From a virus (lineage: Duplodnaviria > Heunggongvirae > Uroviricota > Caudoviricetes): DNA of 39,097 nucleotides. The position numbers and the translations under genes are program-made. Below the pieces are notes generated by a model. The model ran no database searches and had not been told where the DNA came from. It worked only from the letters and a program-made list of their open reading frames with translations. The stretch is from IMG/VR virus record IMGVR_UViG_2609460219_000010, positions 1-39,097 of that record; one strand, written 5' to 3'. This document shows positions 1,497 through 27,232 of this stretch, in pieces (position 1 is the stretch's first letter; every line of letters begins with the position of its first letter).

Positions 1497-2158
1497 GCCC
1501 CTACATCAAAACCACTGATGAATTCGTTATCCATATCAAAACCAAAAAATTTTGAACCTTCCGATGGAGTTTCCACCGAAGGTGTTTCAATGCCACCCGC
1601 CCAAACCCCGGCGGCTTTTACTGTGAGATATCCCTGTTTAATTGCAGCAATTAACTCACGCGATACATCTGAAATATCAGTATCAGGAAGGAGCCAGACC
1701 GATATCGTCATGTCCTGGTTATCGACTATCTGCATTCGCAGTCCGGATCCTGCTGTCGCCGCGTCAAGAATTGCTGGAAGCGAATCATTCCGTCCGTCCC
1801 AGTTATTAATCGCAATCTTCGCTTTAAGGATGACACGATAAGTTTCATCGCTGAGGTACATGTATCCGGAATCAGGATCGTATGGCCCCTGNCATACACC
1901 CTGATCATATCCAAGCCCGTCGGTATCCCAGCTGAAATAGACACCTGAGATAGGCTGGCTGACAACACGGCTACGTCCGATCCACAATCCAAGAATGTCA
2001 AGTTGCACACCAACCGCAGAGTCAATATCAAATGCAGTAATCAGNCCTCTGGTGGCAGCCGCAACATCAATAAGCGGCCGGGTCATCAGATCAACATGTG
2101 CAAGAAATTTAGGTTTGGTGGCGTGGTAGTTCGTGATCAGTTCGGTGTATTTGCTCAT
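1478..2158 (-). CDS. tail/baseplate-associated protein (between baseplate J and fibre)
   Basis: 226 aa ORF overlapping neighbours by a few nt; synteny with contractile-tail baseplate modules. Confidence 0.45.
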   Translation of the reverse strand: MSKYTELITNYHATKPKFLAHVDLMTRPLIDVAAATRXLITAFDIDSAVGVQLDILGLWIGRSRVVSQPISGVYFSWDTDGLGYDQGVXQGPYDPDSGYMYLSDETYRVILKAKIAINNWDGRNDSLPAILDAATAGSGLRMQIVDNQDMTISVWLLPDTDISDVSRELIAAIKQGYLTVKAAGVWAGGIETPSVETPSEGSKFFGFDMDNEFISGFDVGAWGVLL

Positions 2159-7240: not shown

Positions 7241-7543
7241 TTACTCCGTTGATACCAGTAAATGACTGCGACCGCCCAGGTCAGTTTTCGTGGGATAATC
7301 CTGTGTGTTGTCATCGCAGACCACCAACAGCTTAAAACCAAGCCCCATACAGGCGTACTGCGCCAGCAGATCAGCACCAGTGACGAGAGGAATACCGGAG
7401 ATTACCGGCTCCTCTCTGTCGTTCTGCAGGTCCATAATCCAGTACAGATCGCGCCATATGATGCTAATCCGCCAGGTGGCACCACCCAGGACGATGCTGA
7501 ACTGCTGGTTGTCCGCTGTCAGCGGAATTTCCTGAATTATCAT
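7241..7543 (-). CDS. tail protein (small)
   Basis: 100 aa ORF coupled within tail module. Confidence 0.3.
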   Translation of the reverse strand: MIIQEIPLTADNQQFSIVLGGATWRISIIWRDLYWIMDLQNDREEPVISGIPLVTGADLLAQYACMGLGFKLLVVCDDNTQDYPTKTDLGGRSHLLVSTE

Positions 7544-8130
7544 TAGCCGCCCCCCAGTAATGACGCCACGTTACCCGTGATGCTTTTCAGCAGTGAAGTA
7601 TCTGGAGGCTTTGTGGTTTTGTTGCCGCTGTTCTGTACCGCCGACGTGCTGGCCCCTTCCTTCATGTTAGTTTTATCCGCGACGGTAATCTGCTGTGTCC
7701 GGGAGATAAGGACCTCCCTCAGGGTGAGGACGGCGGACAGGACGTTTTCGGTTGTCTTGTCCGTCGTCACTTCCAGCGCCCGGATCAACATGTTGCTGTA
7801 CAGTCGTTTACCGGTTACCACATCGAAGGGGATACGGCTTTCCTGCAGATCCAGTAGCTCCTGATACGTCTGCTGAGGACTCAGGCCGAGCAGGCTGGTA
7901 GCCGTCAGATTACTGGCAAAATCCAGCAATGCGCCGCCACCGGCGAAACCAACCTCCATCACCACTTCTGACGGTTTTTTATAGGCATGATCAGCGACAG
8001 CGGCCCCGACCTCTACCGGATGCTCTGTTATTTCAAGCATATCTGTATGCTTCTCTGAAATAACAACACTGGGAACAATCATTCCTATTTTTCTGCTCTG
8101 CTGATGAAAAAGTGTAGAGATAATATCCAC
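7543..8130 (-). CDS. tail protein following tape measure
   Basis: 195 aa ORF, start overlaps tape-measure stop. Confidence 0.35.
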   Translation of the reverse strand: MDIISTLFHQQSRKIGMIVPSVVISEKHTDMLEITEHPVEVGAAVADHAYKKPSEVVMEVGFAGGGALLDFASNLTATSLLGLSPQQTYQELLDLQESRIPFDVVTGKRLYSNMLIRALEVTTDKTTENVLSAVLTLREVLISRTQQITVADKTNMKEGASTSAVQNSGNKTTKPPDTSLLKSITGNVASLLGGG

Positions 8131-10139
8131 TAACCCACCCTCACCTGATTACTTCGCATGACCTGAGCATTTGCAGACTGTTGCCGACGTGCAACCTCAT
8201 TACCGACAGCGTGCGGATCTCCGCCACCGTAAATGTGGTAGGTATTTTGCTGGTTAACCTCTGTCACTTTGCCACTAATTCCTGCCACGGCAGCCTTATT
8301 AATCAGCTCCCGAGAATAGATATTTCTTCCATTTTCATGCTGGATAATGCTGCTCATCAATGCTGACATGGTTTGCGGATCGCTCATATTCAGGGCAGCC
8401 CTGGGATCCACTCCCAGTCGTTGCGATACAGCCCTGATATACGCAGTTGTGTTGTTATTATCAGACGCAGGTGCCCAGGTAGAGATAATTTTCTCCACAC
8501 TGTTTATTCCCCGTCCGGCGTACAGCATTAACTGACGAGCAAGAGCCCGTAATCCATCAAAAGCAGTTTCAAATCTGGCAAATCGCCCGCCCGGGCGTTC
8601 AAGAGAAGCCCCTGCCTGACCAGCAAAATTAAGGTTTCCCGGATTGTTATTCCGTTCTCCTCGTTTCGTAGCCTGTGCATATTGTTCCGGCTCATCATCC
8701 CCAAACCAGCCGCGTACCGTCCGGCCCACGCTGCGGGGATCGAATCCCCAGTGCTCTTTAATCCAGTCGGCAGTACTGTTAGCGCTGTCTGTAACCATCG
8801 GCATCGCTGACGGATTTTCGCTGNCCTGATTAAGTATCTGTTTGCCGATGCTGACGGCATCAGCCCAGCGGCCATCTTTGATAGCGTTGAGCAGGTCGGC
8901 GATCATGTTCAGTATTTTGCTGAATTCGCCCATCTGGTCGATGAAGTTGCTGAAATCCCACTTCAGGGACCATGATTTGGGGTCAATATTGAGCAGTTTC
9001 GCCAGCGCTTTCACCAGGTCGTTAACGGTCGTTTTAAGGTCACGAACCATCTTCAGCGCGGCATCAACCTCCGGTTTCCACTTGCCCCAGTCAATCAGGC
9101 TGTCGCCGCCTTCCTTCCAGGTCTGATAGTCCTCCCACAGGAGGGCAATCCCCGCCGCCAGCGCGGTAATGAGGCCAATCGGCGACATCCAGAACGTACT
9201 GTTCAGAATGCGCAACGCAATCGTCAGTGCGCCAAACAGCGAGATCAACTCCCGCGTTTGCTTATCCAGCGATTGCCACCAGGTGATGAGGCCTGATGTT
9301 CCTTCAATCAGTCTGAAGAACAGCCGCCCGATAATATCCCCGAGCGCCAGAATGCCTTTTATGGCTTTCGTCAGGGTCTGCTCGATACGCGGGAAGTTGT
9401 CCAGAATATGGCGGCGCAGGGTGTCCAGCGAACCCGCAAGCCCCCCCGCAAGATTAGAGCCGATTTTGTCACGGGCCATGCCTGCCATCGCGCTAAACTC
9501 ACGCAGGGAGGTCATAAATTTGTTGGAGCTTCTGGCCGCCTCGTCAGCATTGAAGCCGATAGCTTTCGCCATTGCGCTGTACTGCCCGGAGAAACCACCC
9601 ACACCCCGGCGCATAGCCATCANGGTATTTTCGTCAATGCCCAGCATCTGCGCATACTGGTTAGCCCGGTAATACGGCATGCCGCTGAGCTTCTGGCCTA
9701 CACCTGTAAAAATAGCGGCCATGTCACGCATGTTACCGCTGGCATCCCGTGTCTGTACCCCCAGGCGATTCAGAAATCCCTCTGCACCGGGATTGTTACG
9801 AATAAACCGGGAGAGGCTTTCCAGAGAAGATCGCGCAGCGTCCACGCTGCCGCCAACCTGCGAAACCGCATAGCCAATAGACTGAATTCCCTGGACTGTC
9901 GCGCCGGTGCGCTGTGACGCCCAGTAAAGATTATCCAGACCAGAGGCGATCTTAGCCGTGAAGGCCACCACGGACAGCGCAGCTCCTTCAACAGCCAGCC
10001 CCATTTTGATGACATTTGCAGTTGTACCGGCGAGGACAGAACCGAACTTTTTCGCTCCTGCATCATCCACACTGAAGCCAAGCGAGACGAGGAAATCTTT
10101 AATAGTTTCAGCGTTCATTATCCTCTCTCCATTTCTCAA
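8130..10139 (-). CDS. tail tape measure protein
   Basis: 669 aa, largest tail ORF, follows chaperone/frameshift pair downstream of sheath and tube; alternative start at 10118. Confidence 0.65.
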   Translation of the reverse strand: MRNGERIMNAETIKDFLVSLGFSVDDAGAKKFGSVLAGTTANVIKMGLAVEGAALSVVAFTAKIASGLDNLYWASQRTGATVQGIQSIGYAVSQVGGSVDAARSSLESLSRFIRNNPGAEGFLNRLGVQTRDASGNMRDMAAIFTGVGQKLSGMPYYRANQYAQMLGIDENTXMAMRRGVGGFSGQYSAMAKAIGFNADEAARSSNKFMTSLREFSAMAGMARDKIGSNLAGGLAGSLDTLRRHILDNFPRIEQTLTKAIKGILALGDIIGRLFFRLIEGTSGLITWWQSLDKQTRELISLFGALTIALRILNSTFWMSPIGLITALAAGIALLWEDYQTWKEGGDSLIDWGKWKPEVDAALKMVRDLKTTVNDLVKALAKLLNIDPKSWSLKWDFSNFIDQMGEFSKILNMIADLLNAIKDGRWADAVSIGKQILNQXSENPSAMPMVTDSANSTADWIKEHWGFDPRSVGRTVRGWFGDDEPEQYAQATKRGERNNNPGNLNFAGQAGASLERPGGRFARFETAFDGLRALARQLMLYAGRGINSVEKIISTWAPASDNNNTTAYIRAVSQRLGVDPRAALNMSDPQTMSALMSSIIQHENGRNIYSRELINKAAVAGISGKVTEVNQQNTYHIYGGGDPHAVGNEVARRQQSANAQVMRSNQVRVG

Positions 10140-10350
10140 TGCGCCGCTGGTTATCCGCTTTTACCGCCAGATGGTCATTCAAGAGAGCAATGTCGTACAA
10201 ATCGACAGAGCCATCTTTAAGTGCTGTATAAGGAATTAACCCGGCGTCAACCGGATTGAGAAGGTAGGACAGCCCGTCCGGCAGGCTGTTAAACGTCAGC
10301 CCTGTTGCAGGCTCTGCGTCGTGCTGGTAAGGGGTGTAGGCAAAAAATTT
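10108..10350 (-). other. -1 programmed frameshift extension of tail assembly chaperone
   Basis: In-frame heptamer A_AAT_TTT (plus coords 10344-10350, minus strand) 19 codons before stop; -1 frame stays open ~80 codons with no Met (FAYTPYQHDAEP...EKWREDNER) ending at a TGA (10108-10110) overlapping the tape-measure start. Confidence 0.5.
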
Positions 10351-10748
10351 CCCAGCGAATCGGCGACCACCCGCGCCACCAGATGAAGCATGACCAGCAG
10401 GTCAATATCATCAAACATCAGTTCGCCCCGGGTAAATACCGGCACCCATCCGTCCATATGACGCCGCGACACCACCGCAAGACAGGGATGAATAATCGCA
10501 TCGGTGTCATCTTCGGTCAGGGAAGACAGTTCCTCAGCGATACGCGGGAGCATGGTTTCAAACACCGGTTTTAACTGCTCGAATTTCACGGTGTCGATTT
10601 TGCCGTCAGCAGGCAAACGGGAGCGAATGCTCCCGAAATCTGACATCATTCCCGCCAGTACCGGCAGAAGTTTGCGGGTCACTTTCAGCTGGTCAAAAAC
10701 GCTGAGTTTTGCCACGCGATATTTCACGCCTTTGATTTCTAATTCCAT
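10296..10748 (-). CDS. tail assembly chaperone
   Basis: 150 aa ORF between tube and tape measure; contains in-frame slippery heptamer near its 3' end. Confidence 0.55.
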   Translation of the reverse strand: MELEIKGVKYRVAKLSVFDQLKVTRKLLPVLAGMMSDFGSIRSRLPADGKIDTVKFEQLKPVFETMLPRIAEELSSLTEDDTDAIIHPCLAVVSRRHMDGWVPVFTRGELMFDDIDLLVMLHLVARVVADSLGNFLPTPLTSTTQSLQQG

Positions 10749-10751
10749 GTA

Positions 10752-11192
10752 TTAAAACTCCCCGAGAACCTGGTCAATCTTGCCGCAGTCAAACACCCAC
10801 GGCATCGTATTACCGGTTTTAGCGTTGGCGTTATCCGGTTGTTTCTGGAACGCAACACTGCGTGCTGTGATGATGTCGCCGCTGACCTTGTTGCGGATCA
10901 CGATAACGTTATTCCCCCATGTGGCAGAAGACTGGCTCTGTGCGTTATACGCCAGCGACAATTTTTTATTTGTCGGTGATGTCTTCAGAAGGTTAACGGT
11001 AATCGTCCCGCTTTTATCTGCATGGAGGCTGTGCATCACTTCACCATCAGCACCGATGGTCATGGTGTTTTTAGGACCGCCCATCGCAACCACAATCCCC
11101 TCTTCAGAACTTGCCGAACCGTACCCGAGATCAATCGAACCTGTCGGCCCGGTCAGCGTCGCAGTGACATCCATAAAAGAATAGGTAGACAT
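10752..11192 (-). CDS. tail tube protein
   Basis: 146 aa ORF directly downstream of sheath-sized gene, upstream of chaperone. Confidence 0.55.
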   Translation of the reverse strand: MSTYSFMDVTATLTGPTGSIDLGYGSASSEEGIVVAMGGPKNTMTIGADGEVMHSLHADKSGTITVNLLKTSPTNKKLSLAYNAQSQSSATWGNNVIVIRNKVSGDIITARSVAFQKQPDNANAKTGNTMPWVFDCGKIDQVLGEF

Positions 11193-11202
11193 TCACTTCC
11201 CC

Positions 11203-12348
11203 TTAGCGAACAACGTTAATCTGTACGTCAGCGTAATGAACCGCGCCTGCAAGTTTTATTGCAGCCTGAATCACCGGAGCCTTACGGGCTTCACGTTCTG
11301 ATTGTGCCTGTTCATCCAGCGGCTGGGCGTATACGTAATAACCTTTGGGCAGCGTGTCACCTGATGACAACTGGCCAAGGTCGCCACCGTTCCATACGCC
11401 CGGAGCAATCAGTCCATTCTGAACGGCCTGATCCAGTGATTTTTCAACATTTGATAACAGTCGGGTAATACCGGCTTCAGTCTGGGGAACCTTCGTGGTG
11501 CTGGTATAAAGCAGGTTATAGAGGTTGGTCTGCACATAATTCTGTAACCAGTCCAGGCCGTGGCGTTCATCAAAGAAATCGCCGTTAGCCATCACTCCCT
11601 GCTGGATGATAGCTGTATCATTCTGGTAGTACACGAACACATTGCAGTTTTTTGCATCAAGTGCCGATGCCTGGCTGACTGTCAGTGTTTCATACCCGAC
11701 ACCCGGCTCCTGCTTAAACTTGAGCGTAATCGCGGTATTACTGCCATTGAAATTAACCGTGAATGCCCGGCCAAATGCAGATAACGCAGCGTATTTATTA
11801 CCCGATGAATACTGAATAAAACTGCGTGAATATCCGGCGGTTTTCAGTTCTGATGCCAAATCATCTCTGGATGCAGTCTGCAGGCATTTCTCATCGCTTG
11901 TCGTAATCGCCAGAATACGGCTTACAGAAGAGGATTCGATCGCCGCAGCCACTTTCAGCCAGTCTGCATCCGGAATATCTGCATCGTCTGCAATCCCCAG
12001 CCCATACCATGAAGTATAATCAAGCATGGCATTCACAGCCTGCTCCAGCGTCTCAGGCGTGGCCTGTTCGCTGTCTCCCTTCGTTTTCACCCAACGACCA
12101 ACAAAAACCTCCTGAGGTTTCGGTGATTGTGAGAAAAACACCTGCGCAGCCTTATATTCTGGTGATTCCACGCCAAAATCTTTTCCAATATCTTCCGCGG
12201 CAGAATAACGGCGAATGCGCTCACTTACCGGAATGATTGTGGACGGGCCGAGAATGAGTAATGCACCAAAATTTCGCCCTGATGCTGCACGCGGCGACAT
12301 GATCACATCAACATTAACAACGTTTGATACAGGCAAGCCCTGTTCCAT
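11203..12348 (-). CDS. tail sheath protein
   Basis: 381 aa ORF at sheath position of sheath-tube-chaperone-tape measure order. Confidence 0.6.
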
Positions 12349-24538: not shown

Positions 24539-24614
24539 TGGTGCTGGTTAACGGACTTGAACCGCTACCCATTCGCTTACAAGGCGACCGCTCTACCATT
24601 GGAGCTAAACCAGC
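24539..24614 (-). tRNA. tRNA-like gene, manual fold gives anticodon UGU (Thr)
   Basis: Minus-strand 76 nt: perfect 7-bp acceptor stem GCTGGTT/AACCAGC, D-arm GCTC/GAGC, T-arm with TTCAAGT loop, 3' CCA encoded; anticodon loop CTTGTAA. Confidence 0.55.
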
Positions 24615-24619
24615 ATATT

Positions 24620-24694
24620 TGGCGGGACAGCGTGGACTCGAACCACGATAAGAAGGTTAACAGCCTTCCGTAATGACCTTTATACGACTGACCC
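24620..24694 (-). tRNA. tRNA-like gene, manual fold gives anticodon GUU (Asn)
   Basis: Minus-strand 75 nt: T-arm CGTGG-TTCGAGT-CCACG, anticodon arm GAAGG-CTGTTAA-CCTTC, CCA encoded; acceptor stem has one T-T mismatch. Confidence 0.5.
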
Positions 24695-26134: not shown

Positions 26135-26271
26135 AGGTGAGCCGTGTAGTTGAAGGTTTTTACGTCAGATTCTTTTGGGATTGGCTTGCGTTTATTTCTG
26201 GAGCGTTTCGTTGGAAGGTATTTGCAGTTTTCGCAGATGATGTCGGTGATGCTTCGTCGCTGTCGTCTCAT
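26089..26271 (-). CDS. ninE: NinE
   Basis: From internal Met: [23 protein letters not shown]...[20 protein letters not shown] recalled as lambda NinE; ORF track version starts upstream at 26361. Confidence 0.7.
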
Positions 26272-26795
26272 TCTGCCCTCCTGACGCCCTGCCCGATCGC
26301 CATCAATGCCGCTTTGGATACGGTAGTAAACATCCGTCGAGGACTGATGAACGGTCGCCAAATCAGCAACATGGAACCTTTGCTGTTTCCCTTCTTCTCC
26401 AGCCCTGTCGATGGTTCGATAAAATTAATCCGTCCATCAGTAATGATGCGAACTTCGTCAATACTCTCCAGAGCCTTGCTGAACCATCCGACAGACATAT
26501 CCTCTGGCACAAGCATCACTATCGTCTGTCGCTGTTGTATGCACTGCTCAGCGGCTTTTTCCACCCACGGCCTGATATTGCTGTACGGTGGGTTATTCCA
26601 GATTGCACCGTGGCTTATCCACTCAGAATTTAGCGCGTCGTCAGCCTCAGTTAGCCAGTGAGCGCACAGAGCGTTTTTGTCGCTCGCTGCTGAATCCAGC
26701 CAGAATCCAAACTCAATATCCAGCGCATCAAAAAGCCAGAGCGGCGTTTGCCAGCAGTCCTTATCGTGTGCTGGCGTATTTGATTTGATAGTCAT
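26268..26795 (-). CDS. phage Dam-type DNA N6-adenine methyltransferase
   Basis: Motifs CWQTP and NPPYS (catalytic NPPY) seen in translation; start taken at MTIKSNT adjacent to ninB stop. Confidence 0.75.
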
Positions 26796-27232
26796 GCAGC
26801 CCGATCTCCCCATCGCGCTTTCCACTCCAGAGCCAGTCGCGCTTCGTCTGACCACTTAACGCCACGCTCTGTACCGAATGCCTGTATAAGCTCTAATAGC
26901 TCCGCAAATTCGCTTACACGCATCCTGCTGGTTGACTGGCCTATTACCACAAAGCCATTCCCGGCAAGGTTAGGAACAACATCCTGCTGCTTTAATGCTG
27001 CGGTAAACACACACTTCCAGCTTTCTGCATCCAGCCAGCGACCATGCCATTCAACCTGACGAGAGACGTCACCAAGGCAAGCCCAAAGCTTTCGATTCTG
27101 GTCTAAGCTGCGGTTGCGTTCCTGAATGGTTACTACGATTGGTTTGGTTGGGTCTGGAAGAATTTGCTGTACCGCGTGAATAGCGTTTTGCTGATGTGCT
27201 GGAGATCGAATTTCAAAGGTTAGTTTTTTCAT
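26792..27232 (-). CDS. ninB: NinB recombination protein
   Basis: MKKLTFEIRSPAHQQNAIHAVQQILPDP... recalled as lambda NinB; start set at MKKLTF. Confidence 0.85.
   Translation of the reverse strand: MKKLTFEIRSPAHQQNAIHAVQQILPDPTKPIVVTIQERNRSLDQNRKLWACLGDVSRQVEWHGRWLDAESWKCVFTAALKQQDVVPNLAGNGFVVIGQSTSRMRVSEFAELLELIQAFGTERGVKWSDEARLALEWKARWGDRAA

Follow-up and report, generated by a model that had tools for sequence, protein, structure and literature searches.

Programmed −1 frameshifting in the tail chaperone gene is an ordinary, well-known mechanism of phages and belongs to textbook biology. A conserved class of such frameshifts was set out by Xu, Hendrix and Duda in 2004 (as cited in PMC5009743). 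Its defining traits include a fixed ratio of two proteins with a common N-terminus, both required for tail assembly and neither found in virions. In lambda, G and GT bind the tape measure protein and T binds the tube protein, the ratio being about 30:1 (PMC5009743). The slip site reported for E/E+E' of P2 is TTTTTTG, which works without a hairpin (PMC3091744), and a 2025 paper on phage Adele describes a −1 frameshift between TAC-N and TAC-NC at a conserved GTTTTT motif in the Vandenendeviridae and Andersonviridae (PMC12846349). The present account concerns the tail assembly chaperone gene of an Escherichia coli prophage contained in IMG/VR virus record IMGVR_UViG_2609460219_000010, of which positions 1 to 39,097, the whole stretch of 39,097 nucleotides (nt) analysed, are called the window. 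A preliminary description of this DNA proposed that the gene carries a programmed −1 frameshift, and we consider a ribosomal shift of the lambda G/GT and P2 E/E+E' type very probable here. The proposal is supported by a canonical gene order, a match of the −1 frame to DUF6889, purifying selection on that frame, the lack of a start codon of its own and conservation in 98 loci. All features of the window discussed below lie on its minus strand unless stated otherwise.

The slippery run and the −1 frame

Two overlapping open reading frames (ORFs) sit between the tail tube gene and the tape measure gene, as in the G/GT class. The first, the tail assembly chaperone ORF or G (10296..10748), has a 0-frame product of 150 amino acids (aa) that matches Pfam Phage_TAC_15 (PF21822; 106.3 bits against a cut-off of 22, expectation value (E) 2.1e-30, residues 6-138) and phrog_1688, 'tail assembly chaperone' (E 3.1e-64). 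Near its end the 0 frame reads GAT TCG CTG GGA AAT TTT TTG CCT. The slippery run GGGAAATTTTTTG, 13 nt long (10341..10353), is defined by its sequence and register and holds three overlapping in-register heptamers: G_GGA_AAT (10353..10347), A_AAT_TTT (10350..10344) and T_TTT_TTG (10347..10341). A slippery X_XXY_YYZ heptamer in the 0-frame register is therefore found inside the overlap of the two ORFs, another feature of the class. The preliminary description had picked out A_AAT_TTT in this register, correctly, and had placed it 19 codons before the chaperone stop; with 16 sense codons after AAT, the distance of that codon from the stop is 17 codons.

Again as expected of the class, the second ORF lies in the −1 frame, overlaps the first at its end and lacks a plausible start codon. 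This frame is open from stop to stop for 97 codons (10401..10108). Counted from AAA at 10350 it has 80 sense codons and no Met, in line with the stretch of about 80 codons first reported, and its translation from that point begins KFFAYTP and runs KFFAYTPYQHDAEP...EKWREDNER. The −1 coding extension, or 'T' domain, occupies 10111..10343 and is identified by its Pfam and phrog matches, by substitution rates and by the absence of Met. It ends at a TGA (10108..10110) which does overlap the start of the tape measure gene, as had been noticed, lying 8 nt inside the gene that starts at ATG 10118.

The −1 translation matches the full 40-position profile of Pfam DUF6889 (PF21829; 73.3 bits against a cut-off of 23.9, E 1.3e-20) and phrog_4364 (E 2.1e-23). 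Beyond the chaperone stop, 26 of the 33 differences from Salmonella phage SEN34 fall on third positions of the −1 frame. Nonsynonymous and synonymous divergence (dN and dS) in this part are 0.047 and 1.31 against SEN34, a dN/dS of about 0.04, and 0.054 and 1.08 against Yersinia phage YP3. Judged by these rates, the −1 frame is under strong purifying selection. Within the overlap, too, the differences cluster where a third position of the −1 frame coincides with a second position of the G frame, so the T frame is the constrained one there and the 15-residue tail of the short G product is free to vary.

These matches could also be read as the mark of an independent small protein, an ORF of 46-78 aa initiated after the chaperone stop, at CTG in the E. 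coli RefSeq annotation. PGAP does annotate a 54-aa 'DUF6889 family protein' in E. coli genomes with the locus (315 of 5426 complete genomes, ~6%, match the module), short ORFs have been called in the −1 frame of several phage records, and the databases hold 29 clusters of stand-alone DUF6889 proteins. The starts are the weak point of this model. The RefSeq CTG has no convincing Shine-Dalgarno sequence, and ATG and GTG are both absent from the −1 frame of the window; the one canonical in-frame start there is a TTG, from which just 30 aa could be made, with the Pfam domain truncated. The invariant Leu-Pro pair (L24 and P25) of the LPDG motif, and conserved sequence reaching back from it to the slip site, lie upstream of the RefSeq CTG and of every other annotated DUF6889 start. 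Furthermore, an independent gene would have no need of the −1 relation, the overlap and the slippery site, all of which are kept in the 98 loci compared below. An independent gene is thus highly improbable, and translation of DUF6889 by way of a frameshift is the better account of the −1 frame.

Conservation of the site and the choice of heptamer

The 98 diverse loci comprise the window, 17 phage records and 80 loci from species-representative bacterial genomes. The last were found by a genome scan with a T-domain alignment (a five-sequence subset); the sample was drawn through the T domain throughout, and relatives lacking that domain lie outside it. The species-representative loci include Acinetobacter, Burkholderia, Achromobacter, Cupriavidus, Photorhabdus, Xenorhabdus, Pseudomonas, Desulfovibrio and Bryobacterales. 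A separate set consists of 80 close relatives from viral contigs.

In all 98 loci, which range from enterics to Burkholderia and Acidobacteria, the upstream chaperone ORF is overlapped by a DUF6889 frame shifted −1 from it; in five of them the arrangement was assigned by inspection. An in-register T_TTY (U_UUY) tetramer is present in every locus, at one conserved position in 97, and lies 59-71 nt upstream of the invariant Leu-Pro motif in the 89 loci where the distance is measurable. The Pseudomonas prophage L145 has C_CCT_TTT at the usual distance from the motif, predicting a homologous fusion junction, and between the site and the G stop it has a G-frame tail that falls a few codons short of those of its closest relatives. 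What precedes the tetramer varies with lineage. The pre-slip codon is A_AAT in enterics, Acinetobacter and Photorhabdus and C_CCT in Burkholderia and others; Achromobacter and others have G_CCT or T_CCT, which make imperfect heptamers, and further forms are G_GGT in some lineages and T_TTT_TTY in others. The constant element across the loci is a predicted slip of tRNA-Phe from UUU (rarely UUC) onto UUU. Codon usage in 35 high-GC loci bears on why it is constant: in their flanking ORFs TTC outnumbers TTT by 1171 to 267, and the Phe codon at the slip site is TTT in 33 of the 35. The presence of TTT despite the preference for TTC reflects selection at the nucleotide level, beyond conservation of the Phe residue.

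Among the close relatives, GGGAAATTTTTT is kept in 80 of 80, and the −1 frame is full length in 73 of the 74 complete loci. The other locus (L024, IMGVR_UViG_643348546_000003) has a 1-nt indel immediately after the LPDG motif, which breaks the −1 frame after 37 codons; it is either a decaying prophage or a sequencing error. The preliminary description had named conservation of the heptamer and of the downstream frame in relatives as a way to check the frameshift, and homologues without the slippery site or with stops in the −1 frame as grounds for giving it up. The −1 arrangement and a slippery tetramer or heptamer were found together in 98 of 98 loci, and L024 is the one broken frame among the close relatives. 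By this check the homologues do not speak against the proposed frameshift but lend it strong support.

Some figures might suggest a functionless heptamer that arose by chance next to a gene that has decayed or was mis-sequenced. AAATTTT, taken simply as a string, shows no enrichment in the window (5 copies, with 10.4 expected), in-register heptamers are common (39 in the 47 non-nested long ORFs, 11,088 codons, or ~3.5 per 1000 codons), and L024 provides a relative with a broken frame. A −1 frame running at least 30 codons beyond the 0-frame stop occurs at only three heptamer places in the window, the chaperone cluster being one. Chance would not explain why all 80 close relatives keep the run and all 98 loci, from several phyla, keep the −1 arrangement and its slip site, nor the strong purifying selection on the −1 frame and the suppression of synonymous variation at the slip site. 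On the comparative data this explanation appears effectively refuted, and we regard it as virtually excluded.

Which of the three heptamers would slip is a narrower question. G_GGA_AAT was considered and rejected: enteric-type relatives may have G, T, A or C in front of GGA, in contrast to the invariant GGAAATTTTTTG, and U after AAA places it outside the efficient V_VV.A_AA.R class (PMC4066793). No variant of GGAAATTTTTTG occurs among the 80 close relatives or the enteric-type relatives examined, and codons 134-137 (GGA AAT TTT TTG) show no synonymous difference in 112 pairwise comparisons. When heptamers were measured systematically in E. coli, those of the H_HH.U_UU.Y class, to which A_AA.U_UU.U belongs, were among the most efficient, and U_UUY was among the best −1 tetramers (PMC4066793). 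The position of A_AAU_UUU is the one shared with relatives that have four Ts at the site. A perfect U_UUU_UUN, for its part, is common to all relatives with a long T run, even where the first heptamer is imperfect, as in C_AGT_TTT_TTT. A_AAU_UUU and U_UUU_UUG cannot be separated on sequence data, and both may be used. The predicted products differ by one residue (GNF-F-AYT or GNF-L-AYT), the junction peptide being ...SLGNFFAYTPYQ for a slip on A_AAU_UUU and ...SLGNFLAYTPYQ for a slip on U_UUU_UUG. The earlier choice of A_AAT_TTT as the slip site therefore holds as to its presence and conservation; the overlapping T_TTT_TTG may serve instead or as well, and A_AAT_TTT may be neither the sole site nor the actual one.

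The window also carries adjacent genes for tRNA-Thr(UGU) and tRNA-Asn(GUU) at 24539..24694, and the Asn codon AAU is the P-site codon of A_AAU_UUU. A role for the phage tRNA-Asn(GUU) as a helper of frameshifting was considered and rejected, since a 99% identical cassette is shared by phage 21, SfI, BTP1 and many others. The link to the slip site is probably coincidental.

Candidate stimulatory signals and the proposed mechanism

The family divides by what follows the slippery tetramer. Where the slip TTT is followed by A, leaving four Ts, a stem of 6 bp or more begins 5-9 nt downstream in 37 of 41 unique sequences, and the median stem is 9 bp. Where more Ts follow, as in the window, such a stem is found in 5 of 36 unique sequences and the median is 3 bp. 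In 26 aligned hairpin-type sequences, which were picked from those having stems, 92.6% of cells are paired and six of seven pairs show double (compensatory) changes; none of 500 shuffles reaches any of these measures, and slid controls pair in 25-43% of cells. The hairpin starts 6 nt past the heptamer (X_XXT_TTT then A) in L085, L091, L094, L095, L099, L101, L104, L109, L148, L158 and other four-T relatives, at locus coordinates near 1210-1250 or 1510-1550. Its covarying arms include GGGCUGCU/AGCAGCCC, GGACUG/CAGUCC, GAUCUGCUU/AAGCAGAUC and GGGUUGGUU/AACCAGCCC. The window has no stable hairpin or pseudoknot 5-9 nt past the heptamer: the best stem starting at that distance is 2 bp and the nearest hairpin is 27 nt away. 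RNAalifold applied to 14 diverse family sequences returned no pairs and no consensus structure.

Upstream of the site, the window contains a Shine-Dalgarno-like sequence, GGGUGGUC (10365..10372), ending 14 nt 5' of A_AAU_UUU and recognised by its predicted duplex and by codon conservation. Shine-Dalgarno stimulators of −1 frameshifting act 9-14 nt upstream (PMC5009743). The predicted duplex of GGGUGGUC with the 3' tail of 16S rRNA has an energy of −12.7 kcal/mol, against −5.1 in other windows of the same ORF. In eight enteric-type phages, codon pairs encoding the same amino acid differ in 45% of cases across the chaperone ORF, and in 10-22% between about codons 123 and 148. Codons 125-129 (GTG GCG CGG GTG GTC), which contain GGGUGGUC, show no synonymous difference in 119 comparisons; the spacer codons between this block and codons 134-137 vary freely. 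Although the sequence of the block differs among 16 further enteric-type variants, 15 of them keep a predicted duplex no weaker than −10.7 kcal/mol. The block also encodes a conserved Arg-Val-Val/Ile motif, and the Photorhabdus relatives lack the element. GGGUGGUC is put forward as a hypothetical 5' stimulator of the frameshift.

Taken together, these patterns suggest, tentatively and with rather less than even confidence, that a single family (Phage_TAC_15 plus DUF6889) has rebuilt its frameshift signal on an invariant U_UUY core in two interchangeable designs. In the first, a bare X_XXU_UUU, or an imperfect G/U_CCU_UUU, would be followed 6 nt on by a covarying hairpin of 6-11 bp, as in Acinetobacter, Burkholderiales and Bryobacterales. 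In the second, found in enterics and Photorhabdus, a run of T6-T7 would supply a second heptamer of the P2 type with no hairpin, and in enterics this design would be coupled to the Shine-Dalgarno-like stimulator at 14 nt. The hairpin part of the proposal is well supported; the Shine-Dalgarno part, and functional compensation of one design for the other, are hypothetical.

Could the fusion be made mainly by the polymerase and not by the ribosome? Transcriptional slippage would require RNA polymerase to add one U on the T6 run. The slippery run is a homopolymer, and poly-U/poly-A heptamers can cause transcriptional slippage (PMC4066793). It is also prone to indels at some level, one public assembly (L098, the source of protein P0001) having seven Ts, with a 213-aa fusion in frame. 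Six Ts are fewer than are usually needed for efficient polymerase slippage. A transcriptional slippage site is a long A/T homopolymer acting independently of register, and what is found here is six Ts, always in register. Many relatives combine four Ts with the covarying hairpin 6 nt downstream, the signature of a ribosomal −1 frameshift, and the site always stands in the X_XXY_YYZ or Z_ZZN codon register, which matters to ribosomes and not to RNA polymerase. Polymerase slippage as the main route is therefore improbable, and ribosomal frameshifting remains the preferred explanation.

The seven-T run of L098 lies at 1897..1910 (Logan contig SRR23924998_45326), and gene callers predict a 213-aa G-T there as a single ORF. 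The extra T probably reflects either a real indel or a homopolymer error in sequencing. P0001 was considered as a natural fusion protein and rejected as evidence, since its contig merely has seven Ts.

The ribosomal mechanism that we infer would run as follows. Most ribosomes would stop at the TGA of the chaperone ORF, yielding the G protein of 150 aa. A minority would slip back one base on GGA-AAU-UUU-UUG, either on A_AAU_UUU, where the P site would hold tRNA-Asn and the A site tRNA-Phe, or one codon further on, on U_UUU_UUG, where they would hold tRNA-Phe and tRNA-Leu respectively. The slipped ribosomes would read 78 more codons in the −1 frame and make a GT of 213 aa (135 from G and 78 from T) ending in DUF6889. 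The predicted masses are about 16.5 kDa for G and about 23.6 kDa for GT. By analogy with lambda, the tape measure protein would be coated by G and the G portion of GT, and the T domain would recruit the tube protein, the product of 10752..11192 being the likely partner. On the same analogy, both proteins would be absent from the finished virion and their ratio would be set by the efficiency of the slip.

Several considerations weigh against this interpretation. No downstream stimulatory structure was detected in the window (fold z-scores of −0.47 and −0.67 for 61- and 124-nt folds), and the efficiency of frameshifting in this lineage could be low without one. The T6 run could in principle yield the same product through slippage of RNA polymerase. 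Support for the fusion, in this phage and in its relatives, is comparative and computational throughout. An AlphaFold2 model of the fusion, built on a 30-sequence alignment, reached a mean predicted local distance difference test score of 44 and a predicted template modelling score of 0.25, too poor for the folds of G and T to be compared with those of known chaperones. As regards the first of these points, lambda and P2 are likewise without a downstream stimulatory structure.

Gene neighbourhood, annotation and related systems

The host phage is a SEN34-like (Brunovirus-like) contractile-tail prophage of E. coli. Its tail module is 97% identical to those of Escherichia phages vB_EcoM-689R2, 611R5, 683R1 and 606R2 and ~80% identical to those of SEN34 (Brunovirus) and YP3. 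The genes follow the canonical order on the minus strand: sheath, tube, chaperone, −1 ORF and tape measure. The sheath gene (11203..12348; Pfam DUF3383, E 7e-101; phrog_205 'tail sheath', E 2e-134) indicates a contractile tail, and the tube gene (10752..11192) matches the Pfam KPP10_Orf10/PhiTE tube family (E 8.8e-61). The tape measure gene (8130..10118; phrog_2276, E 2e-281) encodes 662 aa from ATG 10118..10116, which is preceded by the Shine-Dalgarno sequence GGAGAGAGG; RefSeq starts the gene at the same ATG and names the product 'lytic transglycosylase'. The C-terminal third of the tape measure (8130..8800) matches the endolysin/transglycosylase PHROGs phrog_873 and phrog_7182, which suggests a tape measure protein with a cell-wall-degrading domain.

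Scans between G and the tape measure gene found no promoter and one terminator-like match, at chance level, and an Rfam scan of 9900..10900 gave no match at E up to 1. With neither a promoter-like site nor an Rfam element between the two genes, there is no sign of an alternative expression signal. A sequence search of the PDB gave nothing meaningful and an NCBIfam search matched no family. The window contains 17 ambiguous bases (N), for example at 9623, several of them in structural genes (the tape measure and ORFs of the portal region), where they give X in translations; the frameshift region is free of them.

Two other heptamers in the window were noted. G_GGA_AAC (26385..26391) lies 40 codons before the stop of an ORF at 26855..26268, and its −1 frame is open for 100 codons, 59 of them past the stop; a plus-strand ORF (26137..26661) overlaps this site, and the real reading is ambiguous. 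G_GGG_GGC (7549..7555) lies three codons before the stop of an ORF at 8130..7543. Its −1 frame is the next gene (7543..7241), which has an ATG of its own and abuts the stop, and this looks like an ordinary gene overlap and not like recoding.

Annotation of the −1 ORF has gone in several directions. RefSeq gives it in E. coli NZ_CP051751.1 (L179, 789..953) as a stand-alone 'DUF6889 family protein' with a CTG start. Proteins P0122, P0124, P0125, P0127 and others are further cases in which public annotation has it stand alone. Many NCBI entries call it 'NTP pyrophosphohydrolase', a name unsupported by anything found here. In the window's own lineage, the records of SEN34, YP3 and vB_EcoM-689R2 leave the 177-nt stretch blank, and the SEN34 paper makes no mention of a frameshift. 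The frameshift is recognised in Klebsiella phage Mulock and Burkholderia phage Magia, but no such recognition was found for this lineage.

Recognising the −1 ORF as the C-terminal domain of a frameshift product would give a Pfam domain of unknown function a role and correct the gene model. If the two-design proposal is true, DUF6889, now labelled 'unknown function' or 'NTP pyrophosphohydrolase', would be reclassified as the T domain of a frameshift product. The practical value lies in annotation, with ~6% of complete E. coli genomes concerned, and the scientific value is modest. The family would also form a natural series of stimulators (hairpin, long T run and possible Shine-Dalgarno element) around one tRNA-Phe slip, and this series could be used to study how frameshift efficiency is tuned.

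Among described systems, lambda G/GT shares with the window two overlapping ORFs between the major tail and tape measure genes, with the T part in the −1 frame and lacking its own start. Lambda slips at G_GGA_AAG on tRNA-Lys, whereas the window's A-site tRNA would be tRNA-Phe, possibly with tRNA-Leu; lambda is moreover a siphovirus, and its protein families differ from those of the window. E. coli dnaX and IS911 resemble the window in pairing a heptamer with a possible Shine-Dalgarno-like stimulator at the permitted 9-14 nt. They also use 3' structures, of which the window has none, and in the window the role of the Shine-Dalgarno-like sequence is inferred.

The systems of the Adele paper too belong to myoviruses and have a poly-T slip motif near the 3' end of TAC-N, and the tube protein of the window matches a Pfam family named after KPP10 ORF10. 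There, as here, a downstream 'hypothetical protein' was reread as the C-terminal domain of a long isoform, and the argument was made from conservation of the −1 frame. The phage families and genomes are different.

The likeness to P2 E/E+E' extends to the E. coli host, the contractile tail and the position of the gene upstream of the tape measure. P2 shifts −1 at TTTTTTG, in the same codon register as T_TTT_TTG at 10347..10341 in the window and likewise with no downstream hairpin (PMC3091744). The two are likened by arrangement; the chaperone family differs, that of the window being Phage_TAC_15 plus DUF6889. At 150 and 213 aa the products of the window exceed those of P2 (91 and 142 aa), the run of the window is extended 5' to a second perfect heptamer, A_AAT_TTT, and the window has the candidate Shine-Dalgarno-like element upstream.

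Homologous counterparts exist in Mulock (QFG06717.1) and Magia (QPB08698.1), whose proteins are entered in GenBank as 'tape measure chaperone frameshift product'; these are database annotations made without experiments. Magia differs from the window in having C_CCT_TTT and a downstream hairpin. The T domains of both phages are homologous to that of the window (tblastn identity 64% for Mulock and 40% for Magia) and the gene order is the same, and in Mulock the slippery run is identical to the GGGAAATTTTTTG of the window.

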